A stretch of DNA of 59,113 nt, counting the filler, from Globobulimina sp. (taxonomy: Eukaryota), in NCBI GenBank assembly GCA_003354225.1. It is 9 parts of 9 records of this genome, joined end to end, with 100 filler letters (N's around TTAATTAATTAA, not from the genome) between each part and the next. Parts side by side here need not be neighbours in the genome. Positions count along the whole stretch, not along the records: positions 1 to 6,521 come from PIVH01000283.1; 8 more parts are not named here. The stretch is one strand, 5' to 3'. The position numbers were made by a program, and so were the translations under genes. Below are positions 1-55,502 of this stretch, one piece after another. Numbering within the stretch: position 1 is the first letter of the stretch; every line of letters begins with the position of its first letter. Under the pieces are notes generated by a model that was given only the letters and a program-made list of their open reading frames with translations, searched no databases and had not been told where the DNA came from.

Positions 1-362
1 CCTCTTTAATGCTGCTAATTTGAACCGAGTATATTCATTATCGGTATTGAAGGTGGGATCTATATCGGCGGTTTCATGGAGCCATAATAACATTGATTGT
101 GCTTGGCGAATACAGTTACAATTATTAACTTGTTGGATTCTGTCAGCAATCCAAAACAGTGCAAGGGAGGGATAAGTAGGCAATTGAAACGGATTCACTT
201 TCAGTGTGACGCAGTAAAATACCCAATTTCTTAAGTGGGAGATATACTGTACTTTAGTGCCGGTACATTTGTCCAATGTATTAGTCTCGACAATAAATTC
301 TGCGGTCTTCGGGCGTGTTTGCGAGAGTGGGTGCGTTCGAGCGAAGCGAAGTCTGTACCAAG
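1..362 (-). CDS. Tyrosine recombinase N-terminal domain (partial; not in the ORF track)
   Basis: Manual translation is open to base 1: WYRLRFARTHP...KCTGTKVQYISHLRNWVFYCVTLKVNPFQLPTYPSLALFWIADRIQQVNNCNCIRQAQSMLLWLHETADIDPTF. This fits the T..Y...W..FC/P/H pattern of DIRS YR N-termini and lies directly after RNase H. There is no start ATG; the frame follows a TTAG acceptor at 366-363. Confidence 0.7.
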
Positions 363-440
363 CTAACAGTTTTTGTAAAATAAACACATTTTTGTAAGGA
401 AGTAATGGCAAATTTAAAAGGAGAAAAGAAAAACGGATAT

Positions 441-2206
441 TCAATCCAATTTAAAATTGGAGGCATAATTAGGATATCCAATTCTCGCTCGCTCCTTCAA
501 AGGTAAACAGAGAAAAGAAATGAAATCATTGTATTCTTCTAAGTCATATTGGTCATCAAATGGATTATTGGGATTATTGATTTGGTGATTCAGGAATTTG
601 AAATCATCAAAGTACATTGTTTCTGTTTTAGCTCTGGTCATATTGAGATTAAATTGATTGACAATGGACCAGAATGTATCTAACTTATTACGGGACAAAG
701 CATCGGATAATCCATTGGTGGATGAAGAAATCCAGTCGATCAAAAATTTGTATTCGAGCATGAGATGACATAATTCGTATACAAATAGCATCATATTATA
801 GGATGAAGACCATTTACGTTTGATGGCATAAAAACAGGTCTCATTATCAACAAATAAATGGATAGTTTTACCCGTTAAATAATAGCGGAATGTAAATAAT
901 GCGGAGAGGATCACATGAGCCTCTTTTTGGTTGATATGCCAATTATTTGTATGGGATTCATTAAATGGATAAAACGACCAATATCCACCCAACACATAGC
1001 CACCATGGGATTGAGAGGCATCGGTTGAAGCAGAAATGCTTATTTTTCTGGACATTAATATTTCGGACATTGGTACTTTTAAGATTTGGTCAGCATAAAA
1101 GTACCAATATTTCAAGTCATTCAATATGGAGAGGGGCAATATGAAATTGTGATTTTTGGGATATTTCCCCGAACGGATATTTTCATAGATAAAATGGAGC
1201 AAATTCCAGCATAAAGCCTTTGTAGGTTGCTTCAACTGGGCCCAGTGCATAATTGTACCGCAGAGGGATTCCAATGCAGCTCCAGTAATGACGCGATATT
1301 GCAATGTGTATCGGATCAACTGTTTGAAGTTACGGTATTTAATCGGTGGTATACCAATGAACTTATTTTTCAAATCAAAGAAGATGCCATAAATTACTGC
1401 TGTTTGGCAAGTCCGAATAAAGCCAGACTCCTTTAACGATACTTGAACATTTAGTTCTTTCATAAGAGCATCGAATCGTTTCTCCATTTCAATACAATCG
1501 GCTTCTTTCACCGCCGACAGAACAAAGTCATCGATATGAACCAGGGTTTTATTCTTCCACTGATGATCAAAGACTTTGTTATCCAAAATCCATATTAAAA
1601 CCTGGGCGAAGTACTGGCAGTTCGCCGGAGCAGAGGAGACTCCATATGGTTGTTTTCTGTCTCGCCATACCAAACCAAAGAGGGAGTAACAAATATAATT
1701 ACTGTCTTCCTCACACAGTCCGATTTGGCGAAAGAAGTCCGAAAGATCGCGAATTGCAAAGAAATTACAATCAATCAGGGTCTTTATATAGAGTTTCAAG
1801 TTGGGGAGAGATGGAATCTTGCATTTTATTGGGCGGATCAGTTCGTTGATGGAAGAGGTTGATTTAGTTTTAAAGGATCCGTTTCTGATTACTCTGAATT
1901 TGGTGTAACGGCCCTGTCCGTCTTTCTTAGGGGTACAGAAAATCATTACCATATATTCAGGTTTACCGAAAAATGGCTCAATTTGGCCATTTTCAGCCTC
2001 AGAAATCATTTTATCTAAAATGGCGAGAGCTTCTTGAGGTGTATTTGCAATGTTAGATATCTTCGTTGATAAACGATTATGAATGACATGTGTGGCTTTT
2101 TGCTCTTCCGCCTGAAAATGTGTCTTGAGCCACAGAGGAAAGCCAACAGTAATCCATTTGATATCGGACTTTCCTTTTGGTTTCCCTTGGAGATACTGGG
2201 CGAATG
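441..2206 (-). CDS. Reverse transcriptase + RNase H (DIRS-type Pol)
   Basis: RT motifs FAIRDLSDFFRQI, QPYGVSSAP, LVHIDDF; RNase H motifs STDASQSHGG, HINQKEAH, FVDNET, TNGLSDALSR. No ATG at the start; the frame follows an acceptor (ttgccAG at 2208-2207). Confidence 0.92.
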
Positions 2207-2220
2207 CTGGCAAATTAAAT

Positions 2221-2299
2221 TAACACACAAAAAAACTCGAGTCGTACTCTAAATAAAATTCGAGTCGTACTCTAAATAAAAGTAACACACAAAAAAACT
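2221..2299. repeat. Nested direct repeats between Gag and RT of element 1
   Basis: TAACACACAAAAAAACT at 2221-2237 and 2283-2299 enclose two copies of TCGAGTCGTACTCTAAATAAAA (2237-2258, 2260-2281). Confidence 0.85.
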
Positions 2300-2472
2300 A
2301 CTTTAGTAAAATGTAGCACAGACACCATGGGAACGGAGGTGGTGAGAATCTGGTGTGTTATCTAACGGTGTTACTGAGAAATCGATGCTAACATAGAAGT
2401 AAATATTTAGTTAAATGGGTCCTATTATAATAAGGACAAATATTAAATAGAAAGGAAAGAGGATATAATGGG

Positions 2473-3523
2473 TTAGAATTTAATTTTGCTGAATTTGTCA
2501 ACATATTTCTTATATATATTAGGTTTGGATTTGGCAGTGTCGCATGCTTTAAACGAGTGACTTTTATCCGGATGGAATGCACATCGGTGTTTATAATATG
2601 CATCGGGCGACGGTTCACATTGATTCTTTGGATTTGTACATAAATCCAATCCAAAAAAGAACATACAAATGTCACTAGGACATGTTGTGCCATATTCGGT
2701 AACACATTCATGTGTCGTTCGCCTTAATAAACGTAAGTTATCTTTGGTTGGATTGGCAGTGTTAACCGGCCGATTATTGGGTCGATTATTGTAATTATTA
2801 GGCCGATATGTCGGTCTTTTATTATTATGGCGATTGTTACTGTTGGAATTGCGATGTTCGGCAAATTGTTTATTAAAATGAATTGTTTCATGACCGGTGC
2901 GATTATTTCCATTTTGGGGCCAGTTATAATGTGGTTTTTGGTCAATGTAAACATTGAATTTCTTAGTTTTTTCGAATTCATCCAATTTAAATTCATTAAA
3001 TGTGCTTAAAAGGAATTGGATGATATTGGGTTTGGAGGTATTATCATTAAATGATTGCGTAAATGAATTATAATCCATCAAAAGACAAATGGGGACATTG
3101 TGGATAAGATAATATTGTAACAATTTTATGTCCAGAATCCCACCACATTCCAATATGGTTTTTTGGCAAATTGCTGGATTTTCTGTCCAAACAAACGAAG
3201 GTTAACTTTGACCATTTGGACCCATCCAATTAATAAACGGACATATTTGGAAGGAATGGAGGAGGAATTAATAGCGGATAACGCAAAATCCATGGTGTTA
3301 TTCCATGCGGTCAATATGTAATAAATAGGATGTTTTGATTTGAACGCAGCATGGATCTCCTTCGAAGGTGAGCTGATATCGGATATAACATATTCAGTAG
3401 ATAGAAATGTCAGAGTGGAATGCAAAAATGAAGGAATATCGACGTGGTCAGCGGTAGCAAAGCCAGTGAAGAAACGAATAACTTGGTTTCTGATTTTCAC
3501 TTTCTTTTTCGAAATAGTATTCA
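2473..3523 (-). CDS. Gag-like protein with C-terminal Cys/His zinc-binding cluster; split by a one-base frameshift
   Basis: ORFs 3524-3126 and 3153-2473 join if one A is added to the A6 run (plus-strand T6 at 3159-3164). The C-terminus CMFFFGLDLCTNPKNQC..HRCAFHPDKSHSFKAC follows an N/R-rich linker, as in YR-retrotransposon Gags. Confidence 0.7.
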
Positions 3524-4077
3524 CTATATAGTTTGTTGTGAGTTATTTAAAGAGATAAATGTGCGTAGAATATGCTGACCGTATCAATTGTTTCTGATAA
3601 ACGCTATGTACATAAATGGATTTCTTGCATTATTTTGCATACAGAGGGCATTTGCTTAAACGTGTTATTATGTACATAGAAGATATAGGAGAGAGTAATA
3701 GAATTTGCGTAAGTATACAATATGCTTAGTTTGAAATAACTCATAATCGATATGCAAAAACTGTCCAGTCTAAAAAACGAGTGGACACTTTTTGCACTAA
3801 AACTACTCATAATTGAGTATACGATTTGCGTAAAGGAGAATATGCATAGCAAAGAAAGAAGAAGGCAGAGAAACACCGTTACTTAGGAAATGAATCCAAG
3901 AATGAGAAAGGCTGTGTCATTCTATGCTGTACAGAGACCCAGCTGCAGTACCGTGCATTTCATGAAAGTCAACCGATCACACCTCAAAGAAAGCGTTTTC
4001 GAAAAGGAGCCGGGAAGTTTCAGTGGAAAAGTGATTGATTTTAATTATGTAAACACAACAATTAAAATACCACACAA

Positions 4078-6279
4078 TCAAATATATAGACCTTCAACTT
4101 TGGCGACTAATTCTTTATTGGAGGCGGTATCGGTTCGCTTATTGCCATTCATCTTTCTTTGCATGATATCCATAATTATTTCTTCATGAGAGCGCGTCTC
4201 CTCTTTCGCTACAGATTGGGCTAAAAAGAGCGCGGCTTCCTTATCTTGATTGCGGTCGACGGTTAATGCGGAGATAGAATGTGACTGCAGAGTAATAAGC
4301 TTCTTTTGAGGCGAATCGAAGGCCGAAAACGAATAACGATTTCCGGACTGATTCAGACTGTGGGAAATACGATCAATCTTCGCATTGATTTCACGGTCCA
4401 TTTTATTCAATTTGTCGGCAAATACAGCGCTTTTCTTATTGCGCACTGCATCATCGTCATTCAATTTATTATCATCCAATTTATTATCATCACAAAACTG
4501 ATACGGATTGGTCGCAAATTGCGTTTTGTGGGAAGATGGAGGAGGCGACGACGAGGTCGATGTGGAAAGGATAGAATGTACGAATTCTTTCCTACGTTTG
4601 TTGCCATGGGAATTGGACTCAAAATCGCCGGCAAATTGTACCATTTGGTCGGCAGAGCGCGCTTTCTTAAAATATCGGACTTGTTTATAAACTACGCGGT
4701 CTTTGAAATGCGGACAATGCCATCGCTTCAATTGATTATTGGTGCGATCTAAATAACGATCTGACCGTAATTGTGTGACTCTGGCCAATGTTTGAGGCAC
4801 CATCCAATTCCACCAAAATTTGATTTTTTCACTTTGCGTGTAATTTTTAAAAAAGAAAATGGTAAAAATAAAATCAATGATTGAACGGCTGTCATTGGTT
4901 TGGGATACATCGGTGAATAAATCATGAAAGTTCATCGTATATAGCATATTCAACGTAATTCCGGTCATAATAATATTATCGACAAACGCCATAAAACCAA
5001 TTCGGCGCTCTTCATTATAAATTTGCAACGTTTCTGACAACGTTTTGCCGGCTTCGAGGGATTCCTCGATTGCATGTAATAAATTGGCGAAGAAATTTCG
5101 TGCAGAAATGTACAAATTCAATAAATTGGCGGTTGCTGTCGGCTCATTCAATTTTTTGCATCGATATGATAACACATTATTTAATTTCAATGCATCGCGA
5201 CGTAAATCTTTATCGGCTTTAAAAAATTTGAATTTTTTATTGGATAAATACGAATAAATCACTTTCTTTGCTAAATATGCGTTTAATTGTGATATTGGAT
5301 CAAATTCTTCATGTTCTTGGCTTTGAAATGGGTCCAAAGCAAATAACATTGTATCCTTTGGAGTTAATAAATCATTGACTGTCTCAATGGATGTTTTTAA
5401 TTCTTCGAACTGGGCACCGCGACGTTTCTGGGTTTCCTGGGTTTCCTTGGTTTTGTTGGTTTGGGTTTGTGTTTGGTTTGCTTTGGGTTTCCTGGGTTTC
5501 CTGTTTTTGTTTGTATTCTTGTTTTTATTTTTCGTATTTTTGTTTTTATTAATATTGGCATCATTGGCCTCATCATCATCTGTGGGGTCATCCGTATCCA
5601 TCGCCTTCTTGTCCGAAGTTAGGATGTCATCATTCAAAATATGGACGTCCGGGGAATCATTCCCTGAAAGAAATGAATCGACATTGGCATCATTTGAGGT
5701 TTGTTGGGATTGTGATCCTGTAATATGGGCAAAATCCGCTCCTTGGGAGAGCTGAAACGCTTCTTCGGGATTGATGTCATATTTGCCATCATCCGTTTCG
5801 TCATTGTCATCACAGGAATCATCATTGTTGTTGGAATTGTCATCGTCGTTGTTAATAAAGAATGGCGATGTCGATAAGTCATAGTCTGCGAGACTTCGTT
5901 TATATTTTGTCCACGTACGAGAGGTGCGGAAGGCGATAACGACAGAGACTAATAATTTGCGGCAGAAGGCAGTGATCAAATCTTTCTCAATTCGAACGAA
6001 ATTCGCAGGTCGCGGTTTGGCCGCAGTCCATTTCAATTTTAATCGATCTAATACAGCTTCGTACGATGACGATTTCTTTGGTATCACATATACGAATTTG
6101 TTCGATTTAATATATGATAATATCTCTTCATAATCTTCCTTAAAATATTTGATAGGAGCGCTCTTTGGATCCTTCAATGGGGATTTATACAATGAAGGAG
6201 TACAGAAAAATAGTGCAGGATCAGCATTTACTTTGCTTGCAAATGTATTGAATGCATCTAATGATAATGCCAACGCCAT
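4078..6279 (-). CDS. ORF1 of element 1, 733 aa, unknown function (acidic and K/N-rich low-complexity segments)
   Basis: Long ATG-initiated ORF upstream of gag. Probable GT donor at 4091 (GAAG|GTCTAT), four codons before the stop. Confidence 0.7.
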   Translation of the reverse strand: MALALSLDAFNTFASKVNADPALFFCTPSLYKSPLKDPKSAPIKYFKEDYEEILSYIKSNKFVYVIPKKSSSYEAVLDRLKLKWTAAKPRPANFVRIEKDLITAFCRKLLVSVVIAFRTSRTWTKYKRSLADYDLSTSPFFINNDDDNSNNNDDSCDDNDETDDGKYDINPEEAFQLSQGADFAHITGSQSQQTSNDANVDSFLSGNDSPDVHILNDDILTSDKKAMDTDDPTDDDEANDANINKNKNTKNKNKNTNKNRKPRKPKANQTQTQTNKTKETQETQKRRGAQFEELKTSIETVNDLLTPKDTMLFALDPFQSQEHEEFDPISQLNAYLAKKVIYSYLSNKKFKFFKADKDLRRDALKLNNVLSYRCKKLNEPTATANLLNLYISARNFFANLLHAIEESLEAGKTLSETLQIYNEERRIGFMAFVDNIIMTGITLNMLYTMNFHDLFTDVSQTNDSRSIIDFIFTIFFFKNYTQSEKIKFWWNWMVPQTLARVTQLRSDRYLDRTNNQLKRWHCPHFKDRVVYKQVRYFKKARSADQMVQFAGDFESNSHGNKRRKEFVHSILSTSTSSSPPPSSHKTQFATNPYQFCDDNKLDDNKLNDDDAVRNKKSAVFADKLNKMDREINAKIDRISHSLNQSGNRYSFSAFDSPQKKLITLQSHSISALTVDRNQDKEAALFLAQSVAKEETRSHEEIIMDIMQRKMNGNKRTDTASNKELVAKVEGLYI

Positions 6280-6521
6280 ACGGGATGGTATATACTAAAA
6301 TGGTATATGCACACTGTCCAATCAATGGTTTGTTGACGTTCGAGGCTCGTTGCTGTTTTATGTGTAGTCGCTACCTACAAAAAGAAAATGAAAGAAGACG
6401 AAGAAGAGAGAAGTTTTAGTGAACTAAAGATAAATAATAAAACAAAGTAAGATGAAACGCACTTTTACATTTTATGAATCATAACACTGCGTTTTATTTG
6501 TAAACAAATAAAACTCCGAAT

Positions 6522-6621
6522 NNNNNNNNNNNNNNNNNNNNNNNNNNNNNNNNNNNNNNNNNNNNTTAATTAATTAANNNNNNNNNNNNNNNNNNNNNNN
6601 NNNNNNNNNNNNNNNNNNNNN
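6522..6621. other. Artificial contig spacer (N-TTAATTAATTAA-N); equivalent spacers at 13131-13230, 19723-19822, 26311-26410, 32884-32983, 39451-39550, 46014-46113, 52567-52666
   Basis: 100-nt N blocks with an all-frame stop linker; contig lengths fall monotonically from 6521 to 6447. Confidence 0.98.
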
Positions 6622-7719: not shown

Positions 7720-8069
7720 AAAAATCATGCAATGTATGACCATATTTACCTGAAAAACCCTCTCCTATAGTCATACATGTATGATTATTGTTACACACAG
7801 CTATCGTTTTTTGTTTATCTATCCACAACACAACACATACAACCGACAAACACAACAAATACTACCAACAACATGTACAACCAACAACAACATGTACATC
7901 TGAAAAAGTGATGGATGGCCATCAGGCAATATGTAATAAATGTGATGGATGGCCATTTGAACCGAATAAATTACGTTGTGTAAAACATAATTTTTCGTGA
8001 TACCAAATTTTTCGTGATACGGAAATTTACTTTTCGTGACAGTCAAATTTTCTCGTGATTTATTTTTTC

Positions 8070-8136
8070 TTTTATAGAACCTATGGGGATAAATCATATA
8101 AACTTTTATAGAACCTATGGGGATAAATCATATAAA
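8070..8136. repeat. Tandem duplication, ~33 bp
   Basis: TTTTATAGAACCTATGGGGATAAATCATATAAA occurs twice in tandem. Confidence 0.85.
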
Positions 8137-8830: not shown

Positions 8831-11800
8831 TTATGTTGGACTATGTTTTGGTGCTTGATTTTTTAATTCAGTTAACATAGGAATTAATAGTTTTGTTTTT
8901 TCAACACGCGAGTAAAAAGTAACAAATTTTCTGGCTTTGTTGATATTTGGCACATTCCTCAATGTATACAATGCTTTGCACGCAGCCCGCAATATATCCT
9001 TTGCACGCTCACAATCTTTATTTCCTTTCGTTTGATCCATTTTTTCTTTCATTCCTTTCATTAAATCAGTTGGTAAACTGTCCAAAATGTGCGGTAACAT
9101 TATCAAGTTGCTATGGAATGTGCCAATTTTATAAAAAATCTGATAAGTTAACATTTGTATATCGGCCGACGAATCGCATAAACCATTGCGTAAAAACGAT
9201 ATAAATTCAAATAAATCGAGCATGTGCGGCGTTGCATCGATTAACGAATCTAAACAAATAAAAGCCGCTTTCCTTAATGACAAACCTTCGTCGACGCAGT
9301 GCTTAAATGGACCCAAATCCACTTCGCGAATCAGCGCCACATTGGTTACGGTCTGGCAATATATTGTATGCAATATCTGATAGACATCGATTAAGCCGCA
9401 ATTTACTCGCAATATGCGGTTAAGCGACAAAAAAGTTTGCCGCCGCACTAACAAGTTCTCGTCGGACAATCTCAATAAAAAGGCGTCAATCACCGAGGAA
9501 GGCAATGCCTTTGTGTTTAGACAGTATTTTATTGCGGTCGCCATGGTGGCTCTGGTATTGCCACACGCACAACACAGCAATCTCTCAATTTCCACAAAGA
9601 TGTCCGACTCCGCATCGATCACTGCCAATTTGCCCAAACACTCTGCGATCAGCGCCCGGACGCCTTCATCACTCGACGACGACGCACAAAACAACAACGG
9701 CCGGATGCGCTGCCCAAAGGGCATGATTTTGTTGATGCGGCAATAATAAGTTATGATCTCTCGCAGCGAGTTGAGGAGCAAATATTGCTGATCGCCGTGT
9801 TTGTGCAGCATACGCAGCAAAGCGGGCAGATACAACTCCATGTTTCCAATGCAAATGTTGCCCAAAGCAAAGGAGGCGGCCCATTTCACGCAGTCCCACT
9901 CCGAGTTGAAGGCGCAGAATATCTTAAAATTAAGCTGCTCCACCTCCCATTCGCCCAAATCTAGCCCGGCTTTGCCCAGTTCGCCAATCGCCAATAATGC
10001 GACCTGCGAATAGCACTCATTCGAGCTATCAATCAAAGATATTATGTCAATGTCCATGTCCATGTCGTTATTATTATTATTTATCAGTATTAAGACAGAC
10101 AAACACTGCGCAATCGCACTGTACGATGAACGCGACAATTTTGGTGTGGCCGACCGAATTAATTCATTCTTAAATGCGTCAAATGATAATATTTTGCCAT
10201 TTGTTTGTAAATAAAACTGCGAAAATAACGATTTGAGCGCGATCAATGCCTTGTTATTTTGCAGCAGCGGCGATTGCAAAAATTTATAACAGGATGGAAA
10301 GATATATTTGGTAATGGCCGATAATAAACGAACATTGTCATATTTCTTTATAATTTCTGCCATTAATTGTAATATTAAGGCACTTTTTTGTAGGTCGCAG
10401 TCGTTTATGTACTCACTACATTGCACAATAAGCGATAGCAATAATTTCTTGTCGATGCCATTGCCGATGCCATTGCCATTGTGCCCGATAATGCATATTA
10501 ATGTATTTGAAGCAGCCGCAGCGGCACAACCTGATTCTTTCAAAAAAAGGCAGCAAGACTCAACCACGCAATTCACAATGGATGACATGTCAATATTTAA
10601 TGTCGATTTTGCTAAAATGGAGAAGCATTCCAATGCGGTTTCTCGCGTAATTTCATTTGCTAATCGCTCATTTAATATGTTTATGCATGGATTTATAAAC
10701 GAAGACAATAAATTATCCCCAAATCGCGATATCATTGCCGTTGTTGCCACCAATGCGGCTTTTTCCGCCTCACCACAAATATCGGTCACATTCAACTGTT
10801 TAAAAGTGACACAAAATAAATCAGTTATCATTGCATCATATTTATTGTTTATAATATTATATTTTAAATATAATATCTCCGCCATACGAGACACGATTAA
10901 CATTGCTCTTCTTTTGACGGCCGGATATATGCAGTCAATGCAACATATTACGGCGGCACACAAAGCCTCGTCGTCGTCGTCGATGACGGACAAACATTCA
11001 ATGTCGTTATGAGCGCCGCTCGTTAATATTAAATACAACATACAAACGCTGCTTTGTTTCAATTGGATGTCGTTATTCTGTCTCATACACGCCATTATGC
11101 ACAAGATCAAATCCTTAAAATATTGAGATTGAGCCATGTTTGCTTGGCCAACTACCAATAAATCGCGCAATATTGCTAACAATCCATTTTTTACTTTTGT
11201 TGATGCGCTTTTTGACCCAAATTGTTTGCATATTTGTTGCATGATCGCCGCTAACTTGTCACATATTAATTCTTTGCCATTTGAATTGTCACAGATTATT
11301 GAGATTAACTCTTGAAATGCCTTAAATATATCTAACCGCACCGTTGTGTCATGTTCGCCAAATCGAGATAATAATAAGTCACATATTGGCAATAAGTCAC
11401 ATTTTGATTTATGCCTCGAAATAAATGATATTAACATTTTGATGGCGGCTCTCCTCACTTTCCATGATCTGTCATCCAAATCAGAATCACAAAATATTAT
11501 TAAATCATTCTCATTCTCATTCTCTTCCCAATCAACGGGATCTCCCCAATCTGAATCCGAATCTATATCTATATCAATATCAATATCAATGTCATTATCA
11601 TTATCATTATCATCTATATCAATATCAATATCATCATAATTTGCATCATAATTTGGATCATAAGTCATCATTGTCAGTGCCACATTGATTAACTTCTTTG
11701 AATGCGGCAACATTTGCGTTGGACATTGGGTCACCATCACATCAAATGTTTGCAAACAATTCTCTCGCAAATCCATGGCAGCGGCGTCATGGCGACAATT

Positions 11801-12631
11801 GCAACAAATGCTCATTAATGGCGGTACGATGGCATTTAAATGGCGGCATACTCGCTGTCCCGCATTGCGTGCAAATATGGCCACAGTTTGAATGAAAGTG
11901 AATAATAACAATTGATCGTCATTGTAATTGTAATTATAATTGAGACCGTGGATAACTTTTTGGATCAAAGCATTAAACAAATGGTCGTTTATTGTGCTTA
12001 CAATGGCACCCAAACAAAAAGCCACTTTTTTGCGAATCTCTGGCCTCGAATCGGTTAACATTGCTTCAATATTTTCTAAAATCAAGCTATGCTCTTTTTG
12101 AGTCATCAAAAATCCGAATTTAACGGTTAAATCTTTCAGAATGTCCAGGCACGCCATTAAGCGATGAAACTCGTTTCTTTCTTCTTCTTTATTCCAATTT
12201 TGTTTATTTTCTTGTACCAATCCTTGGAGTAAGCGCTTGATTATTTTTTTACAGATTTGGTGTCCAAAATGTTCAGGAACAGCGGCAATGATATTTTTTA
12301 AAGCAATGCAATAAATATCTCGTAACTCAGACTTTCTTCCATTAACCAATAATAAGCCGAGTTTATCAACAATTTCTTCAACCTGTTCACATACAAATTT
12401 TTGGACAATTGAACATAAACAGCGACATGCAACGGATTGTACGTCATTTGAATTATCATCCAATTGCTTTAATATTGCGTCACGAATTGGTGTCTGTAAT
12501 GAACTGTCAATGTCACCCTCAATTTTGTTTAACTCGCCGGTCAAATCAGATGTTGCCATGTAACGTTCATCTTTGTCGTGATGTTGTGTTTTTTTTAACA
12601 ATGCGCGAATCTTTGACGGATCCGGTTGCAT
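8831..12631 (-). CDS. CAND1: Cullin-associated NEDD8-dissociated protein 1 (CAND1/TIP120), apparently intronless
   Basis: N-terminus DKDERYMATSDL..EL, DDRSWKVRRAA, HEAT repeats, EGVRALIAECLGKL, C-terminal TIP120 motif IREVDLGPFKH.VDEGLSLRKAAF. Confidence 0.95.
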   Translation of the reverse strand: MQPDPSKIRALLKKTQHHDKDERYMATSDLTGELNKIEGDIDSSLQTPIRDAILKQLDDNSNDVQSVACRCLCSIVQKFVCEQVEEIVDKLGLLLVNGRKSELRDIYCIALKNIIAAVPEHFGHQICKKIIKRLLQGLVQENKQNWNKEEERNEFHRLMACLDILKDLTVKFGFLMTQKEHSLILENIEAMLTDSRPEIRKKVAFCLGAIVSTINDHLFNALIQKVIHGLNYNYNYNDDQLLLFTFIQTVAIFARNAGQRVCRHLNAIVPPLMSICCNCRHDAAAMDLRENCLQTFDVMVTQCPTQMLPHSKKLINVALTMMTYDPNYDANYDDIDIDIDDNDNDNDIDIDIDIDIDSDSDWGDPVDWEENENENDLIIFCDSDLDDRSWKVRRAAIKMLISFISRHKSKCDLLPICDLLLSRFGEHDTTVRLDIFKAFQELISIICDNSNGKELICDKLAAIMQQICKQFGSKSASTKVKNGLLAILRDLLVVGQANMAQSQYFKDLILCIMACMRQNNDIQLKQSSVCMLYLILTSGAHNDIECLSVIDDDDEALCAAVICCIDCIYPAVKRRAMLIVSRMAEILYLKYNIINNKYDAMITDLFCVTFKQLNVTDICGEAEKAALVATTAMISRFGDNLLSSFINPCINILNERLANEITRETALECFSILAKSTLNIDMSSIVNCVVESCCLFLKESGCAAAAASNTLICIIGHNGNGIGNGIDKKLLLSLIVQCSEYINDCDLQKSALILQLMAEIIKKYDNVRLLSAITKYIFPSCYKFLQSPLLQNNKALIALKSLFSQFYLQTNGKILSFDAFKNELIRSATPKLSRSSYSAIAQCLSVLILINNNNNDMDMDIDIISLIDSSNECYSQVALLAIGELGKAGLDLGEWEVEQLNFKIFCAFNSEWDCVKWAASFALGNICIGNMELYLPALLRMLHKHGDQQYLLLNSLREIITYYCRINKIMPFGQRIRPLLFCASSSSDEGVRALIAECLGKLAVIDAESDIFVEIERLLCCACGNTRATMATAIKYCLNTKALPSSVIDAFLLRLSDENLLVRRQTFLSLNRILRVNCGLIDVYQILHTIYCQTVTNVALIREVDLGPFKHCVDEGLSLRKAAFICLDSLIDATPHMLDLFEFISFLRNGLCDSSADIQMLTYQIFYKIGTFHSNLIMLPHILDSLPTDLMKGMKEKMDQTKGNKDCERAKDILRAACKALYTLRNVPNINKARKFVTFYSRVEKTKLLIPMLTELKNQAPKHSPT

Positions 12632-13697
12632 TTAGGCGAAACCTCAAGTTGACATTAGACTATGTCCAACTATGTCTACTTCAGTTATGTCTAAATTAAG
12701 AGGATTGCTACTCTATTGCCTCTACTGTCTCGTCATATGGTTTATAATTCATTTGAAAATACCAAAACAAAAGCATATAAAGACAGATATTTTGAATCCC
12801 GTCAGTTACAAGTAAGTGCGTCACCTCCTCAGTAAATTCACTCTAAAACTTTTTCTAAGCATAATGACAAAAACTTCACTTCCACTCCTCTCTCATCTTC
12901 CTCCACCATGTGACCGGGAATCCGTCACGTGTAAAGATCCTTTGGATCATCACTTTTAGGCTCTGGTCGGTACGTTGCAGGCAGATCATAACTGCACAAC
13001 TGTTGTTGCTGAGTAAGCCCGTTGGATTTTAGGCAGCTGTTCACGTGGGATATTATATGGCGTGTATAATTTTGAGACCGAAAATGCACGCCCAATGCAA
13101 TTGTAACTAATTTACACTGTGATTGGGACANNNNNNNNNNNNNNNNNNNNNNNNNNNNNNNNNNNNNNNNNNNNTTAATTAATTAANNNNNNNNNNNNNN
13201 NNNNNNNNNNNNNNNNNNNNNNNNNNNNNNAAAATTTGTGACGATTTGTCATTTGTGATTAATTGAAATAGAATGGAGTTTGTCACAATGTCACAATATT
13301 AACAAGAAATAAAATGGATTAAAAAAAAACAAAAGAAATTAAATTCCATAACACAAAAATACAGGTAAATACATAAAAATACATAAATCAAAGAAGAAAA
13401 TATATTCAAACATATTCAAATATATCAGTAATAAGTTAGTTGGTTCAATAATAGGATTAATTAAAAAATCCATGAAATAAAGTTGTTGATTAAATATAAT
13501 GATTAAATAACATATTCTTTAGGATGTGCGTTCGTTTTATATCATGAATTTTCCATAATGCTGCAAAAACAATTACGCAAAAGCCAAAATAACGAACATC
13601 GTAAAGCATAACATAACAAAAAAAATAAACTAAATCAAAATCATTTCATGAACAATTTATATACAAATACAAAGTACGGAATTCGAATTAAATTAAA

Positions 13698-14929: not shown

Positions 14930-17495
14930 ATGTCAAACGAAGAAGAATTTCAAGAAATTATTGCTGTGGTTGGATTTCTTGCAGTTGTTTGGATTTGTGG
15001 TCGATTATGCAAATTTGTAGAGTTATCTCCATTGATTGGATGGATTGCATCGGGTTTAATATTTGGGCCAAACGGACTGGCTCTAATTCCGAATAAACAT
15101 CAAGAAGTGTGGAGATTATTAGGTACATTAGGTGTAACTTTAATGATTGCGGAATCCGGAACGCATATTCACTTCGATAAAGTCCGAAAATTGGGTGTTA
15201 CGGCTGTATTGGTAGCATTAATCGGCACTTTCTTGCCACTCGCACTGGCATGTGCTCTCGGTATGTTTTTATTTAATTTTATTTAATTATATAAATAAAT
15301 ATCAAATACAAATAGTGTATGTAACGGGCTTTGGTTCCTTAAAAGAAGGATTCGCGACCGGCTGTGCCATGGCGCCGACCTCAGTCAGTGTTGCATTAAA
15401 ATTATTGTCTGAAGCAAATCAATTAAACTCATTACCCGGACAAACTATTGTAACTGCTGCCTTTTTAGACGATGTATTTTCAATTATTTTATTAGTGATA
15501 TTACAACAATTTGATAATAATAATACTTCTCCATCTCCATCAACATTAAATACAATATTTGCAATAAGCAGTAAATTTGTGTTTTGTTTTTTATTTTTAT
15601 CGATTGGTGTAATTCTGGCAATGTATGTTTTTAACGAAATTATTCCGAAGTGTTTACATTTTATGCCGTCGTATGATAATATAAATTATCAGCCGCGCGA
15701 CGAGATGCATTTGATTATAATGATAGCGGTGTTGGCGAGTTATTGCTATGTCGGGGATAAGATTGGCAGCCATTTGTTAGGCGCCTTTATCGCAGGAATG
15801 TCTTTCTCGCAAATCAGTCGCTCGATGTATGTGTGGCGCAGACAAATGAAGCGAGTGTGCCAATGGCTGATCAAACTGTTCTTTGCGTGTTCCGTGGCGT
15901 TCACCATTCCGACGCAGTCCTTATTAAAAGTGGAAGCCTTTGCTTATGGCTTATTACTTTCGTTTGTATCTGGAATTGTGGCTAAAATGCTCTCTGGATT
16001 TGCCACCCGCTCCTCTTATAACTATGTGGTTGGCTTCGCCATGGTTGGTCGCGGGGAGTTTGCCTATTTGGTGGCGCAAAAAGCAAAAGAATGGAAACTC
16101 ATTTCTTCCGATTTGTATGCCATCATTGTCTGGGCCTTATTGATCGCAGTGATTGTGGCGCCCATTGCCTTTGGTTTTGTGCTCCGAAAAGCATTTAAAA
16201 AAGAAGTCAAATCGGGAATAAAATGGTTTACCATTCGTGCCGAAGCTAAACATCACACCGGCGTCCATTTCGAAATTGTGGATGTTTTACATAATTTAAA
16301 ATTGGATATTTTAGAAGCAAAGGTAGAGACTGACGGAGATACCGATTGTTCCGAGTTCATTGTTGGTGGCGGTGCCGACTTTTTAGATAAAGATAAAATG
16401 TATGAAATATTACATGATATTCGCGAGGCAGTGGGAGATATAAACCACGCACAAGTTCAATTATTACCAATTGATGAAGTACAATTGGATGAGTTGGATG
16501 AGGATGAATCTTTTATTGAGTTGGATGTCGATGATTTATTAGAAATTAAGTTAATGAGCAAGCATTCGCCACAAATATTTGCCAAATTAATTGAAGAAAT
16601 GGAGTTAAATGGGATTCAATTAATTCGTGGACATTTAGATAATTTTTTAAACACAGACTCGCAAGTTATATTTGGTAAACTATCGGCACTCGCAAACACT
16701 ACGCAGAATAATACAGATTGTCGAAATATAAAAAGTAAATTAAAAAAAGTCTTCGAAATAAATAACATTTCGGCAGAAATGTTATGTAAAAAAATTAGTA
16801 GAGATGTCGCCGTATTTCCGCACCATACTAAATTTAGTGAGTTATTGCAATCGGCGACAAATAAATATAATCCAATGTTAAGTAATAAGTTTGAAAATGG
16901 ATACGAGATTGAGATTTATTGCGAGTGCTATGTTTGCCATTTAATATTATCGATAACGTCAGTCTTTGAATTGTTAGACTTGGACATTAGAACAATAAAT
17001 ATCCAAATAAATGAAGAGAATAACAAATTTAATTCAACTTTTTTCCTGCAAGAAAAGAATAATAATAAAAATAGAAGAAGTATTATTGAAGAAGAGATAG
17101 CGAAAATCTTTGAGAGCAGCAACATTGCGGCAAGTATCAAAACAAAAGAAATTGAAATAGGTCAAAAAGCATTGGATTTAGATAACAGTTTGCATAGTTT
17201 GCAGATTGCGACGTCGAAACTAGCATCGCCATCGATATCTGTGTCTGCCTCTGCTGGCTTGCAAAACTTAGCGGCAATCACCCAAAGTACTGTCATTATA
17301 ACACCCAACAGTTTAAAAGCTCCGCTGCCGCCATCAATCGAAAAGGGGGAAACAATATTTAATTTGATTGGTTTACTGGACAATGGCGATGTGGACCGTA
17401 TTGAAGAAATTAATGACAAATCAAACCCAGATCTAGACATTGCAGAGAGTCAAAGTAGTAGCACAATTCTTGATATTCTCAATTGTAAATTGTAG
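14930..17495 (+). CDS. CPA2 (KefB/NapA-like) cation/H+ antiporter with C-terminal ACT-like domains; intron 15261-15315
   Basis: Motifs APTSVSVA, AAFLDDVFSIILL, HLLGAFIAG, MVGRGEFA. A phase-1 GT-AG intron joins ORFs 14930 and 15252 in frame. The tail has ACT-like repeats (HHTGVHFEIVDVLHNLKLDILEAKV). Confidence 0.85.
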
Positions 17496-17601
17496 CACAT
17501 GATATATACATGATATTGTTGTGTGGTTTTCTGTTATATTTAATTGCTTTGGTTTTTTTTTGTATTTACAATTAAAAACAAACTTAAGAGTCAAGAGTAA
17601 G

Positions 17602-18936
17602 ATGGCACTTTTAAACTTATTGTTTTTGCTAATAACAACCGTAAATGTGAAGAAAGTGGAGGGTGTCGATGTTTTATCCATAGCGCGATTACATTCTAAT
17701 CCAACCATTCAATGGTACACCAATATGAGTGATCATGATTCAGTAGTTCGGATTAGATTAATTGGTCCTGCTGACAGATGGTTTGCCATTGGTATTGGGA
17801 ATACATCAATGGATAATACATACACATTTGTTGTATATGGTGATGGCACTGTAAGTGAGAGAAGATTAGGTTTCCACAATGCAGGCGATCCATTACCAAC
17901 ACAAGAAACAGATTTAAATATTACTTTTGTAAACGAAGAAAATGGAATCAGAGAAATTGAAATTAGCAGAGGAAGAGTAGGATATTCAAATTTATTTTAT
18001 ACATTTCCAAATAGTCGATTATCGTCGGTTGCTTTAATAGCGGCATGGTCCATGTCAGCAGGTGATTTATTTGGGCATTATCATGGTGAAAAAAATAGAT
18101 TATATCACAGCATAGATTTTTCATTATCCAATGAAACCACTCCCGATCCAACCAATGCGCCGACCAGAGCACCTACGCAGGCGCCTACATTAACACCCAC
18201 CATTTCTCCCACATTAACACCCTCCATATCGCCTACATTAACCCCGACTGTCTCACCAACGCAAGATTTTCGAAATAGATATGATTTATATGGCATGGCT
18301 ACAGTGGGCGGCCAGCACTTAGATAATATACAATTAGTAATTGGCATTGAATATGAGACAAACACAGTGTTTATAAACATAACTGGCCCGACAGCCACAT
18401 GGTTTGCTATTGGCTTTGGATCTGATTATATTTATGATACTCCTTCTTCTTCGTCAATGAAAGGTAAATACGCCATCATTATTGATTGGACAAGAGAAGG
18501 AAATGCATTTTCAGTCATTGACGATCAACATATATTGGAATATTTTTTAGATGATCATTATGTAAATATTCAACAGCCATTAAATAAATTCGTTCAACGT
18601 AAAATTCAACAGCACCCAGACCAAACAGACAGATTTCGGCGAAATGTATTAATGCAAAGACCAACATTCAAAGTGAATGATAGCAATGGAGAATATTTTA
18701 ATTTTTCAACATGTAATAGAAAATATAAAATTATTTGGGCCAGAGGTCAATATAGCCCTTACAAAGCAAATGCATTTGGTGGTGGAGCAGGACATACTGC
18801 AACCGATCGCGGAACTGGAAGTGTAACCGTTCAAGGCGCGCTATTTGATGACTGTAACTCCGTAAAATCACTATTTGATAAAATAAATATTATTTCTATA
18901 ATAGTGATAACAGTCTATGCAATTGAAAATATATAA
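17602..18936 (+). CDS. Secreted/membrane-anchored protein with two DOMON domains separated by a PTxxP mucin-like linker
   Basis: Signal peptide MALLNLLFLLI; two GP..WFAIG.G...M DOMON motifs with distal His; PTLTPTIS repeats at ~18140-18260; hydrophobic C-terminus. Confidence 0.8.
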   Translation: MALLNLLFLLITTVNVKKVEGVDVLSIARLHSNPTIQWYTNMSDHDSVVRIRLIGPADRWFAIGIGNTSMDNTYTFVVYGDGTVSERRLGFHNAGDPLPTQETDLNITFVNEENGIREIEISRGRVGYSNLFYTFPNSRLSSVALIAAWSMSAGDLFGHYHGEKNRLYHSIDFSLSNETTPDPTNAPTRAPTQAPTLTPTISPTLTPSISPTLTPTVSPTQDFRNRYDLYGMATVGGQHLDNIQLVIGIEYETNTVFINITGPTATWFAIGFGSDYIYDTPSSSSMKGKYAIIIDWTREGNAFSVIDDQHILEYFLDDHYVNIQQPLNKFVQRKIQQHPDQTDRFRRNVLMQRPTFKVNDSNGEYFNFSTCNRKYKIIWARGQYSPYKANAFGGGAGHTATDRGTGSVTVQGALFDDCNSVKSLFDKINIISIIVITVYAIENI

Positions 18937-20144
18937 CAATTTCTTTTCTTTTTTTTTTGTGATGAATTTCTATGTACACTGTGTGCTTTATCATTTTTTG
19001 CCATTCTCGATAGCCACAAATCTCCGATGATTTAGTACTGTTAAACTCAAGTAAACATTTGAATAATACTCATGAACAAAAAATATCCGCAAAAATTAAA
19101 AAAAAAGAAATGGATTATTTCGAAAAAAAAAACAAAATTGAAATAAAAAGTAAAAAAAGACAATATATTGGTAAACAACAAATCATTTTTGTGATTTTCT
19201 CTGCGTGGCTCTCTATTTAAAATCACAAAAACATACAAAAAAAATACATTGCATTTTCATCACCACCTCAATGTTTATTAAATGCATTCATTCATTCAGT
19301 CAATCAATTTAATAAAACACCACAAAAATACAAAAAAAATTTATAAAATAATTAAATTAAGACAAAACAAAAAAAAAGAACATAGAAAAAATAAAAGAAG
19401 GAAATATTTTGAGAAAAAATTAGAAAAAAATAATTAAAAAAAAAGGGGGTTATTACAGTGGTAGAATATGAGAGTTGTGGGGCATAATCATTTTGGGTTT
19501 TGGTTTAATTTTAAGTGGTTGCATAATTTGACATGATTTATCATCAAATGCTTCTAAAACCGGATGAATACAACGCGTGGGATCTAATAATAATTTATCA
19601 TATGATTTAACAGCAATTAACCAGTTCAATTTAGTTTTGACGACAATTTTGTCAAAACCATAATCTTCCAATAATATTCGAAAAGAAATAACTTGTTTGT
19701 CATCCTGCGCATCAATACCAAANNNNNNNNNNNNNNNNNNNNNNNNNNNNNNNNNNNNNNNNNNNNTTAATTAATTAANNNNNNNNNNNNNNNNNNNNNN
19801 NNNNNNNNNNNNNNNNNNNNNNACAGTCGATAATGTTGTGTATGATGAAGGATATGGCATTTCAGGTCGATTATTAATAAATTGTGTTTGTAAAAAAAAA
19901 TTAAATAAAAATGAAAGAATATTTGCAGGCAGTCGAACACTTGAGACTTCCAAGGTTATTGTGGTCGGAACGAAGAAGTTGAATTCTCTGATAAGTTACT
20001 ACCTTGCACTTCAGTCTTCATCAGGAATTAAAACCTTCTTCGTCCCTAGCTTTATTTAAACAATTGCCTGCGGCAACAGCTAGTGCCGATTCTGAAACTC
20101 TACATATCCTTCCTTCCCCATATAGATCGTGGTCGTTTCCCGTG

Positions 20145-26274: not shown

Positions 26275-26410
26275 AAAACGTTGACCAACATTTCTTGTAT
26301 CTTTTATTTANNNNNNNNNNNNNNNNNNNNNNNNNNNNNNNNNNNNNNNNNNNNTTAATTAATTAANNNNNNNNNNNNNNNNNNNNNNNNNNNNNNNNNN
26401 NNNNNNNNNN

Positions 26411-34135: not shown

Positions 34136-37100
34136 ATGGCAAATAATGTCCATGTTGGTTTGCTATATTAATATTATCTTCATGCAGATGTAAAAATATA
34201 TTTTTTACAGCAATCAACAGAAATAGAACGAGCACGAGATAGACTCGAACGATTATCTTGGACAATTGGTTCAAAATGCATAGTATTTTCAAGTTTACAG
34301 AATGGCTGGTTTTTTGCTGAAATTATTAAAATACATAATGACGATGAAGGTGAATGGTTAACTGTCAAATATATGGATAATAATATTATCACAAAAAAAA
34401 TACAACGATTTAGTAAGGAAATATTACCGGTTTATCATGATAAAAATATTAAACCTAAATACAATAAATTAATCAATACAGATAAAAATGTTGTTATTCG
34501 AGCAATATCCGATGTATTGGATGCGGAGGAAATTAATCAAATTGTGAACAGAATAAATTCTGCAAAATCACAGGTTTGTTTCTCACAAAACATATAATTA
34601 AACACGAAAACGATATATATACTGTATACACTGTAGAAAGCACACGAAAGTATTTTGGAGACATTAGGTATTAATACAGATGAGTATGATATTGATGAAT
34701 TATTTGAGGCGGAGAATATCAAAAAAAAAGGTGATTGTTGCTTAGAGAGAGTGCGCTGTATCTCATTAATTTATTGTTCGTGGATTGATATTAAAAATGA
34801 AGAACGCAAAGATGAGAATGAAATTGATGACATTTTTGACATTATTAATAATTCATTATCCCAACAATACACATTTGCGAATTTCATCAAAGATTATAAA
34901 TTTATAATGAAAAATAAGCAAATTTTAGGTTTTGATGATGACGAAAAGAATACGAATAAGAATATTTGTGATGGCGATAAATGTTTTATTGGTGGCAGAC
35001 ATGAAAGGGATCGCGCACTTTTGTCAAAAGATTTATTTTTCAGTGCCGCCTTAAATGTATTTAATGATCACAACGATACCGATGCATCCATAAAATCAAT
35101 GGTAAGCCAGCAAATATTGGATTCGTGCCATTCTTTTTTATATCATACATTGCGAATAAATGTAAATCAAATTAGGAGGGAAATGGATAAGAAAGTGAAT
35201 GAGAATGATATAACAGACATGGATGAATTGTTACAATTATGTCATGATAGCGTAGCGGTTGAATTTCGAAAATATTTGGATTTAAAAAAAAAAGATGCGA
35301 GATATCGTATAAACGAAGAACGCGGCAAACAATTTAGTAAATTTGTAACGAAGAAAATAAATAAAAAATCAGCAACAACCGAATTGAATGAGGCAGTTAG
35401 TGGTGGTTTTATTGACGGATTAATGGAGGAAATGGGTAAATATCGAGTAAATAAAGCCGTAATGAATGATTTTTATACGTATTTAATGGATGAAGAGTGG
35501 GACAGCGATGCCGTAATTATGGATTATACAAATATTGATATTATGAATGATGATTTAATTAAATATGTGTTATGGCAGAATAATGACTCACTCATTCAAC
35601 AAATTTATAAAATATTGGCAAAGAAACATAATTCTAAATGTGATATGCAAATATTTGAGGATTATTTGACTGATTTTTTGAATATTAATAGCCAGTATTC
35701 ATCCGGCATTCGCTTCTTTTATTGGACATATTATAAACACATCACTGATAATGAAAATATTTTATACAAAAGAAAAGATGGCCAAAATAGGACAGAATCG
35801 AATATCGGATATCGTATTTGTGATTGGTACATTCCAGCCAAATATGCGTCATTTAAAGAGGAGATGCTTGAAAATGGCTTTTTTTTGGAACAATGGATGG
35901 AAACCAAAGAAAAAGCAACAATGAAATATCAAGTCTGGAAAGAAGATGAAGAGGAAATTACATGTGAATGGAGAGCACAAAATACAGCAAATAAGTATTT
36001 ACATACATATGGCATAAAAAAAGGTGAATTAATTAGAATGGATCATATAATGAGTATCCTTTTTTACACTAATTTTAGTGAGCAATCATTTAATTTCTCA
36101 GCCAGTTTCCGAAGAAATCAATGGAATGAATCGGATGTCTCATTTAAAAAAAGACATTCATGTTTCGCAAACTGGGCGAGATTATTAAGAGAAAGCATTG
36201 AATGCTATGGCACCAATATGTATTATTCAACAGTAGATATTTTTTATCATGGCATTGGTAAAGAATTTATATTTGAAGGCACTACTTTTAAAATATTTGG
36301 GCCTTTGTCTACCACTGCCGGTTTGACTTTTATTTTATTCATTATTTGTAAATGATAAATAATTAAACAGAGTTTGAAGTGGCTCATGGAAGATTTGCAA
36401 AGGATGATGGGATGGTGGTTGATATTCTAAATCTTAAATATGGACAGGCACTCTGGAATTGTGTGTTTTGGAGTGATTATCAAGAAGAAAATGAGAGATT
36501 ATTCGTGGGCTCATTGCAATGGTTTTATTTTAAATCAATTCATGATATTCCGCTGAAATTGGATTATGAAAAATTAATCCGACCCATATCTATGTTAAGT
36601 GAGATGATTCGTGGATATCCATTCAAACAATGTGCAATAAAGAATTGCGATGTTGTATGTGTTGCTGAATTAATTGGTTTGGGATTGGGATCACATTCAT
36701 CATCATCACAGACATTGAGTAAAATACCAATTTATATGCAAAGACTATTCAAAAATATGATTAATAATGTTTATAATGTTCAAATAAATATGTTTAATAT
36801 CAATAGACATAAAGAAGGTGCAATGTATAGTCAATATGGTTATTTATTATTTAAACCATTGTTTATCTCGTCCGAATGCATTATGTTTAGTAAAATATTA
36901 CATTTATTTAAACATAAATTGCAATATATTATTGTATATAATCTAATGAGACCTCCATCATTTGATAAATCAATCGAATTAAATCCATCATTTACATCAT
37001 CAACAATATCAGCCATAACAGAGATCAATGAATCAGGTAAATTACAAAGTACATTTAAAGAGATTATTATAGTAAATCCAATTAATAATATATCAACATT

Positions 37101-55270: not shown

Positions 55271-55502
55271 GCTGTGCTCGGCAAAACACTCTCGTAAATT
55301 TTACCTTTGGAAAGCTTGAATTATGAAATATCTAAAGAATTATGAAATAAAAATAGAAAATTATGAAATAAAAATAGTGTCTATTTTTGTTAATTCAGTT
55401 TACCACAGAACCCAAATCAATCACAAAACAAAAAATCAAATCACAAATCAATCACAAAACAACTCTCTTTCTTGTTACATTGCATCATACCGTATCAGAC
55501 AA

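Follow-up and report, generated by a model that had tools for sequence, protein, structure and literature searches.

The expression of the genes of tyrosine recombinase (YR) retroelements (DIRS, Ngaro, PAT and VIPER) is poorly understood. Ngaro elements are defined by the gene order Gag, reverse transcriptase/RNase H (RT/RH) and YR, without a methyltransferase (PMC8547959, PMC13465315), and DIRS1-like elements combine overlapping open reading frames (ORFs) with inverted terminal repeats, a complementary region inside the element and a domain resembling a methyltransferase (PMC13465315, PMC3783388). For DIRS-1 of Dictyostelium, the YR is believed to integrate a circular or single-stranded intermediate, and the splicing described in the same report is that of an artificial marker intron only (PMC7192593). 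The published descriptions consulted give YR retroelements overlapping or frameshifted ORFs only (PMC3783388). Spliced RNAs for downstream genes are established for retroviruses and some long terminal repeat (LTR) retrotransposons (PMC5580714, PMC7828637, PMC3735527); a foamy virus comparison is given in PMC7828637, and the Gag RNA of Ty1/copia elements is made by a splicing strategy (PMC5580714). Here we analyse element 1 (E1), which fills the first contig (positions 1-6521, minus strand) of a 59-kb window, that is, the whole stretch of 59,113 nt, filler included, taken from the Globobulimina sp. assembly GCA_003354225.1. Judged from its sequence, E1 is a defective copy of a Ngaro-like YR retroelement in which ORF1 and the Gag-like, RT/RH and YR genes are probably linked by alternative splicing.

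E1 was compared with ten related loci (L001-L010), which were obtained by scanning metagenome contigs with an RT alignment, and with a second element of the window, element 2, which fills the fourth contig (19823-26310, plus strand). Scans of genome contigs and viral contigs gave no further relatives of the E1 family. As in Ngaro, the ORF maps of the family show the order Gag-like, RT/RH and YR, and Pfam found no methyltransferase domain in E1, element 2, L001, L002, L005, L007 or L010, nor any DDE integrase or aspartic protease family at E <= 0.01 in any of their ORFs. The L001 contig closes on itself, as would be expected if the terminal repeats were direct. In contrast to Ngaro, the E1 family carries an additional large orphan ORF (ORF1) upstream of Gag, has spacers between start-less ORFs and splice-site-like signals in one phase, and its YR has Tyr for the first His of the HxxR box and was missed by the Pfam model in 7 of 7 members scanned. 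With DIRS1-like elements the family shares RT/RH and a YR in place of an integrase; none of the four features named above for DIRS1-like elements was found in it, its only inverted repeats being the arms of 11 nt in E1 and an imperfect palindrome of 26 nt in L001.

Results

Four ORFs follow one another on the minus strand of E1. ORF1 (4078..6279; frame open from 6294, ATG at 6279, stop at 4080-4078) encodes 733 amino acids and is the only one with an early start codon. It is followed by a Gag-like ORF with a Cys/His-rich C-terminal part, which the ORF map places in two frames (2473..3522, composed of 3542-3126 and 3201-2473), by the RT/RH ORF (441..2205, open frame 2219-441, stop at 443-441), and by the YR ORF (1..361, open frame 450-1). 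Of the latter, only the N-terminal 121 amino acids are present, 66% identical to L001 ORF4; the contig ends at base 1 within this ORF and thus cuts off the catalytic half. As the original prediction held, none of the three downstream ORFs starts with ATG; counted from the opening stop, the first Met lies at codon 83 in the first part of Gag (part A), at codon 70 in RT and at codon 119 in YR. The spacers at 4077-3543 and 2472-2220 have stops in all frames, which rules out frameshifting or read-through.

A putative 5' splice site, GTTGAAG/GTCTAT (4086..4098, minus strand), lies at the end of ORF1, with the exon ending at 4092 and the intron starting at 4091. Its GT (4091-4090) is preceded by 2203 bases of the ORF1 frame, which gives phase 1 with G as the carried base, and stands 14 nt before the ORF1 stop. 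Each downstream ORF has a putative 3' splice site on the same strand, the AG of which is the first after the in-frame stop that opens the ORF: ...aactatatAG/TGAAT for Gag (3523..3545, AG at 3525-3524, with 49 nt free of AG upstream), ...gtttttttgtgtgttaatttaatttgccAG/CATTC for RT (2206..2237, AG at 2208-2207) and ...ttttacaaaaactgttAG/CTTGG for YR (362..390, AG at 364-363, with 119 nt free of AG upstream). All three are in phase 1, the exon starts at 3523, 2206 and 362 each being codon position 2 of their own ORF, and the junction codons G+TG (V), G+CA (A) and G+CT (A) yield the peptides E-VNTISK, E-AFAQYL and E-AWYRLR. Donor and acceptor signals of compatible phase, as expected of a retroelement with spliced subgenomic mRNAs, are thus present at the sequence level. 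The donor at 4091, the acceptors at 3524, 2207 and 363, their common phase and the three junction peptides had all been proposed in the original prediction, and recomputation returned the same coordinates, phase and peptides.

Alignment with the closest relatives distinguishes two of these acceptors from the third. The Gag AG of E1 aligns with a phase-1 AG of L002 (caacAG|TAAAT), and the phase-1 AG of L001 lies 9 nt away. The YR AG aligns column for column with tttatttAG|CTTGG in L001 and cttactaAG|CGTGG in L002, the sequence being conserved downstream and unalignable upstream; in L002 a TAA stop directly abuts this AG, and the reading frame opens only where the proposed exon begins. The RT acceptor at 2207 is specific to E1: in L001 and L002 this AG lies within the coding sequence. 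The RT acceptors of these two loci (...ctctacttAG|AATATAAC in L001 and ...aatattcAG|AGTACGAC in L002) precede a conserved RT N-terminus of about 25 codons, which E1 lacks. Compared with L001 and L002, the corresponding region of E1 (2220..2299, minus strand, repeats D2 and D5) is rearranged: it holds two tandem copies of a family-type acceptor, tttatttAG|AGTACGACTCGA (AG at 2273-2272 and 2250-2249), it has lost 60 nt of the conserved RT N-terminus in frame, and a sense codon of the relatives is replaced by an in-frame TAA at 2222-2220. A frame entered at either ancestral-type acceptor closes after 7 or 9 codons. Before the AG at 2207 stands a 92% copy (repeat D2) of the pyrimidine tract of the ancestral acceptor; this AG could at best be a replacement acceptor, from which RT would be made without conserved N-terminal residues, and it is not the family site.

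The Gag frame of E1 is broken by a 7-nt deletion at 3132/3131 relative to L002, whereas Gag is one uninterrupted ORF of 362-369 amino acids in L001 and L002. Given the Gag frameshift and the state of the RT 5' end, E1 is a damaged copy, probably a decaying one, and may itself express nothing. A programmed -1 frameshift at CCAAAAAAC in the Gag overlap was considered and rejected, as the deletion lies downstream of this site and Gag is a single ORF in both relatives. As a further detail of the RT 5' region, the ancestral RT acceptor is held in a 23-nt tandem duplication at 2229-2299 (minus strand) and a third copy of the T/G-rich tract lies directly before the AG at 2207; such duplications suggest slippage between short similar sequences.

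The same layout extends over a family of considerable depth. By RT sequence the loci fall into six lineages, A (E1, L001 and L002, 75-86% identical), B (L003), C (L004), D (L006 and L010), E (L005) and F (L007, L008 and L009), with identities between lineages down to 36%; element 2 stands far outside at 22-25%. The full set of ORF1, Gag, RT/RH and YR is present in L001. An early ATG is found only in ORF1, which begins MAL... in E1, L001 and the fragment P0038 and has its ATG at codon 3 in L005. Among 21 downstream ORFs, counted without L008 because it is 99% identical to L007, the first Met lies at a median of codon 93, and 12 of the 21 have no Met in their first 90 codons (expected 0.14 for each). 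The ORFs are separated by spacers of 0.1-0.6 kb, which cannot be aligned between relatives whereas the coding parts can. This layout and its conservation are direct observations.

The phase of the candidate acceptors is not random in the family. Across 11 loci, the first AG after the opening stop is in phase 1 at 19 of 23 ORF starts, in phase 0 at three and in phase 2 at one. Against a null of 0.473, the phase-1 share among 1422 AGs inside ORFs, the binomial probability is 5e-4 (17/21 and 1.7e-3 without L008); counted once per lineage and gene, 13 of 14 are in phase 1. The four misses are Gag of L002 and YR of L007, L008 and L009, where protein conservation begins at a phase-1 AG that has a long T-rich/pyrimidine tract and lies 25-88 nt inside the ORF (for example, ...ttttgttgtgttttAG|CATACAGAGAC, which would give A-YRDNL). 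The first AGs are preceded by AG-free tracts with a median of 61 nt, compared with 13 nt in the background (Mann-Whitney 2e-10), and by 11 pyrimidines in the 20 nt upstream, compared with 9 (p 5e-4); long AG-free tracts and an excess of pyrimidines are the marks that would be expected of real 3' splice sites. The RT acceptors of L001, L002, L003, L004 and L010 sit at the start of the conserved RT N-terminus. Every YR of the family starts with an Ala encoded as G|CN, so that a G from an upstream exon is needed.

The donor shows a comparable pattern. ORF1 ends in ...NKELVAKVE|GLYI* in E1 and ...NKDLVNKVE|GLYI* in L001, and the same ending is shared by a 60-amino-acid database fragment and by a diverged contig of run X2, which reads GAAG|GTTTAT (with a loose end at 4106). 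The donor-like sites are GAAG|GTTTAT in L001, GAAA|GTTAAT in L010, where ORF1 ends ...NDVLTELE|S*, and CAAG|GTAAGT in L005, where the motif ...RDLVDELQ| leads into a canonical GTAAGT and a tail of 38 codons without similarity to the others. In lineages A, D and E the similarity of ORF1 stops exactly at the GT, which lies directly behind the C-terminal motif ..LV..VE/LQ/LE, and the tails beyond it are unrelated in length and sequence. The GT is in phase 1 in all four loci in which the end of ORF1 is available (E1, L001, L005 and L010), in the case of L005 only if a 68-nt intron or a frameshift is assumed. The C-terminal exon of L005 is joined to the main ORF1 frame through a 68-nt stretch, GTGAGC...ATCAG (L005 1941-2008), which would be either a small spliceosomal intron in ORF1 or a frameshift.

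Element 2 is an independent lineage with the same layout in phase 0. Its ORF1 ends in a phase-0 donor, AAA|GTATGT, at 21449|21450, and its Gag, RT and YR ORFs each lie directly behind a TAG (21738, 22946 and 24944) preceded by T-rich tracts, all three acceptors being in phase 0. TAG makes up 15% of the stop triplets in this contig, and three in a row would occur by chance with a probability of about 0.003. The donor phase therefore matches the acceptor phase in both lineages. Since the match holds within each lineage and the phases differ between the lineages, the partner of the acceptors would be the donor at the end of ORF1 and not a common trans-spliced leader; this is the strongest single argument for the proposed arrangement. 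The core idea of a lineage-wide layout put forward in the original prediction is supported by the comparative data from six RT lineages and element 2, except that the AG at 2207 is not the RT acceptor of the family, which corresponds to 2273/2250.

The encoded proteins are those expected of a YR retrotransposon of the DIRS order as far as RT and RNase H are concerned. Both Pfam matches of the E1 RT ORF, to RVT_1 (2.5e-6; 27.8 bits with a cut-off of 29.6) and to RT_RNaseH (1.3e-4), fell slightly short of the cut-offs, and in the L001 homologue RT_RNaseH passed its cut-off (28.2 versus 24.8 bits). There are 27 relatives of the E1 RT with 39-76% identity, of which 17 have PF00078 alone, 7 have PF00078 and PF17917, and 3 have neither; protein atlas matches were generic RT clusters only. 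The motifs QPYG..SA and LVHIDDF are invariant in the alignment, and the RT ORFs of the family (583-641 amino acids) are filled by RT, linker and RNase H. For the last ORF, no Pfam hit was obtained for the E1 fragment, and Phage_integrase (PF00589) was found in none of the seven family YR members scanned and in one of nine YR homologues (P0035). An alignment of YR homologues (L001, L002, L006, L007, L009 and P0030-P0036) has invariant R173, K217, W351 and Y363, with YSxRIGG in place of HxxR; the Arg of this box is replaced by Lys in L007 and L009. The profile of the E1-family YR matched the YR of element 2 (hhalign E 1.5e-4, probability 52%), which in turn matched Phage_integrase below the cut-off (1.8e-5), and Cre chains matched the catalytic end of the family YR weakly (E 0.4-1.2); the AF2 model of the YR was unusable (pLDDT 44). 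On this basis, we regard the last ORF, with moderate confidence, as a divergent tyrosine recombinase.

ORF1 is 37-41% identical between E1 and L001 over its full length, compared with 76% for RT. It consists of a conserved N-terminal domain, an acidic/basic low-complexity middle, a further domain, unreliably predicted to be helical, and a C-terminal part of about 90 amino acids that is highly conserved. Pfam returned only noise for it, with nothing above 0.01 otherwise, and PHROGs returned nothing. A HMMER search against 1.84 billion representatives gave three matches, namely two short fragments and one spurious repeat protein, and the AF2 model had a pLDDT of 30.7. By these searches, ORF1 is an orphan protein.

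Discussion

We propose that the full-length, unspliced RNA of the element would serve both as ORF1 mRNA and as the genome, that is, the template for reverse transcription, whereas a fraction of the RNA would be spliced from the single 5' site, a few codons before the ORF1 stop, to one of the three 3' sites just inside the downstream ORFs. The spliced RNAs would encode in-frame ORF1-Gag, ORF1-RT/RH and ORF1-YR fusions, in ratios that may be set by acceptor strength, and splicing would stand in for the frameshift or read-through that yields a 'Gag-Pol' fusion. By way of the fusion, the enzymes may be carried into a particle built from ORF1, much as with retroviral Gag-Pol; we infer this role of ORF1, as well as the use of the sites and the formation of the fusion proteins. 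The conserved last 90 or so residues of ORF1 would stand at every fusion junction, and they are kept even in L005, where the rest of ORF1 is unrecognizable.

Three other explanations have to be weighed against this model. The AG and GT sites might have arisen by chance, with internal promoters yielding subgenomic transcripts on which the downstream ORFs are translated by internal or non-AUG initiation, or with translation from the first internal Met. The original prediction considered the same logic in two elements hard to attribute to chance; for E1 taken alone the case is weak: three first AGs sharing a phase would be expected in about one case in nine on equal phases, and more often given that 47% of AGs within ORFs are in phase 1, and there are four GTs in the last 150 nt of ORF1 to choose from. 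The non-consensus donors of E1 and L001 also suit this explanation, as do the Met at codon 70 of RT, which precedes the Pfam RT core (residues 97-263), and a conserved block in the spacer (3966-3890), which could be a promoter. Across the family, however, the pattern exceeds chance, and the chance explanation becomes unlikely: it has to face the excess of phase-1 first AGs (19/23, p 5e-4), the long AG-free tracts (median 61 versus 13 nt), AGs aligned at the exact start of protein conservation, and the matching phase-0 design of element 2. Residues are, moreover, conserved before the first Met, in RT from about 35 amino acids ahead of the LN..F..YL motif and in YR from the first Ala.

Trans-splicing is known in several protist groups, and the three AGs might be acceptors at which a polycistronic transcript receives a spliced leader that brings in the start codon. 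This would account for acceptor-like sites before start-less ORFs without recourse to the weak ORF1 donor, and a leader ending in AUG plus one base would set a single phase for all acceptors. Such a leader, however, fits poorly with phase 1 in the E1 family and phase 0 in element 2 within one assembly, each matching a GT at the end of ORF1, and with ORF1 similarity that ends exactly at the GT in three lineages, with a canonical GTAAGT in L005. Rfam detected no spliced-leader RNA in window positions 1-26400, L001, L005 or L010, a weak point that covers known families in this DNA only. We judge trans-splicing to be quite improbable. Three constitutive introns joining all ORFs into one ORF1-Gag-RT-YR polyprotein mRNA would likewise explain the start-less ORFs and in-phase acceptors, and would need donors at the ends of Gag and RT. 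In E1, GT is absent from the final 24 nt of Gag and the final 66 nt of RT, where the conserved C-termini ..KFSKIKF* and ..NYASNFKLD* run straight into the stop, and in element 2 the sole GT near the Gag end is in phase 1, at odds with the phase-0 acceptor. The absence of GT at these conserved ends argues against a chain of constitutive introns, which is the least probable of the explanations, and for one donor with alternative acceptors.

Several points weigh against alternative splicing from the ORF1 donor. E1 is defective, and the proposed RT acceptor at 2207 differs from the conserved site. The donors of E1 and L001 (GTCTAT and GTTTAT) are far from the common GTRAGT consensus, the host consensus being known from two inferred introns alone, and the proposed introns (568, 1885 and 3729 nt) exceed those two (about 50-70 nt) ten- to seventyfold in length. 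Phase 1 is the commonest class of AG in AT-rich ORFs (47%), a consequence of the frequent NNA-GNN codon pairs in coding sequence rich in AT, so that the phase signal is weaker than a one-in-three null would imply. The loci are related and the counts not fully independent, and the homologous AGs in the four misses were picked after the data had been seen and are not counted among the 19. The fusion of a 733-amino-acid ORF1 to every product would be unusual, with a putative function, and the use of the splice sites is deduced from DNA sequence.

Even so, alternative splicing from a single donor remains our preferred reading, and it has precedents. Foamy virus Pol is translated from a spliced mRNA, and env of avian retroviruses shares a few gag codons. 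The proposed scheme resembles that of retroviruses and LTR retrotransposons in that the unspliced RNA would be both the genome and the mRNA of the first gene, with spliced RNAs expressing the downstream genes, and it resembles complex retroviruses in having one major donor and several acceptors. It differs in that the donor of the E1 family lies at the very end of a 733-amino-acid ORF, so that the whole first protein would be fused to each product, in that splicing would be needed for each of the three downstream genes, Gag and RT included, and in that the element is a YR element and not an LTR/integrase element. No report of native splicing in YR retroelements was found in the full-text literature searched; subscription reviews and supplements lay outside the scope of that search, and an earlier mention is possible. 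Genes linked by splicing are likely to represent a new expression variant among YR retroelements. We also lean, by a small degree, towards the broader view that in a YR retroelement lineage of uncultured microbial eukaryotes alternative splicing has replaced frameshifting, read-through and overlapping ORFs, with a single donor at the end of a fast-evolving ORF1 serving the three acceptors and with the phase fixed within a lineage (phase 1 at RT identities as low as 36%) and differing between deep lineages (phase 0 in element 2).

If this is true, a conserved in-frame design of one donor and three acceptors would solve the 'Gag to Pol ratio' problem in a new way, and a retroelement would keep three introns through reverse transcription by means of an unspliced RNA genome, in the manner of retroviruses. 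The cutting of these ORFs at internal Met codons by gene finders would find an explanation as well; the database proteins P0006-P0036 begin at arbitrary ATGs. Among 2948 candidates from a search for longer proteins with the L001 RT as query, no fused ORF1-RT protein was found, which is weak evidence. In contigs of runs X1, X2, X4 and X5, whose library type is unrecorded, none of the 11 joints listed in comparison with E1 falls at 4092>3523, 4092>2206 or 4092>362, and none has the CT..AC ends expected of a minus-strand intron; intron-less DNA copies were therefore not seen in these runs, a result that says nothing about RNA.

Other features of the window

The window consists of contigs of about 6.5 kb each, in falling order of length, joined by eight N44-TTAATTAATTAA-N44 linkers (6522-6621, 13131-13230, 19723-19822, 26311-26410 and four more). 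Features on either side of a linker are not linked in the genome; as elements 1 and 2 lie on separate contigs joined in this way, they are not genomic neighbours, and their co-occurrence in the window carries no information on linkage.

Neither E1, whose contig lacks the 3' end, nor element 2 showed terminal repeats. At the element-proximal end of the E1 contig, about 210 nt upstream of the ORF1 ATG, a palindrome (6491..6514, minus strand) is formed by a perfect 11-nt inverted repeat with a 2-nt spacer (GTTTTATTTGT tt ACAAATAAAAC). It aligns with a palindrome at L001 7990-8044, which adjoins the point of L001 self-closure; the L001 palindrome is 26 nt long and imperfect, and its 11-nt core arms are perfectly kept at the E1 contig start. 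The repeat may be a recombination or terminal site of the element. In L001, positions 1-119 are identical to 8015-8133, an overlap that closes the contig to a unit of 8014 nt. This overlap fits direct terminal repeats, a tandem array or a circle, and does not by itself demonstrate the split direct repeats A1-[ORFs]-B1A2B2 of Ngaro. A leader exon with an ATG upstream of ORF1 was also considered and rejected, as there are just short, unconserved upstream ORFs and no conserved donor.

Within the ORF1-Gag spacer, the putative first intron, a conserved non-coding block of about 77 nt (3890..3966, minus strand) is about 90% identical to L001 ~2665-2745, whereas its flanks diverge between the two elements. 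The block has no stable fold (z 0.26) and matches no Rfam family, and covariation is not measurable with two sequences. By eye, a CTTTGGAT-like motif is also seen in the ORF1-Gag spacer of L005, L010 and element 2. Pieces of E1 of 39-99 nt, 85-97% alike and with unrelated flanks, occur in high-depth contigs of X1 and X5, which come from another organism code (B) and study; they match E1 within 3046-3170, 3753-3813, 3893-3955 and 4084-4190, and may reflect related elements or chance at the 85% threshold.

The other contigs carry host-type genes (8831-12631, 15222-18936, 47111-52614 and 55320-58331), namely CAND1/TIP120, a Na/H exchanger, a TIG-repeat protein and a PAP2-FAD oxidase fusion, and their long ORFs point to an intron-poor eukaryote. 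An automated search for host introns in the window was too noisy to give a splice consensus. Two probable host introns, with borders inferred from reading frames alone, lie at ~36321-36370 and 51112-51182 on the plus strand; they are AT-rich, 50-71 nt long, and have the donors GTTTGA and GTTTCG.

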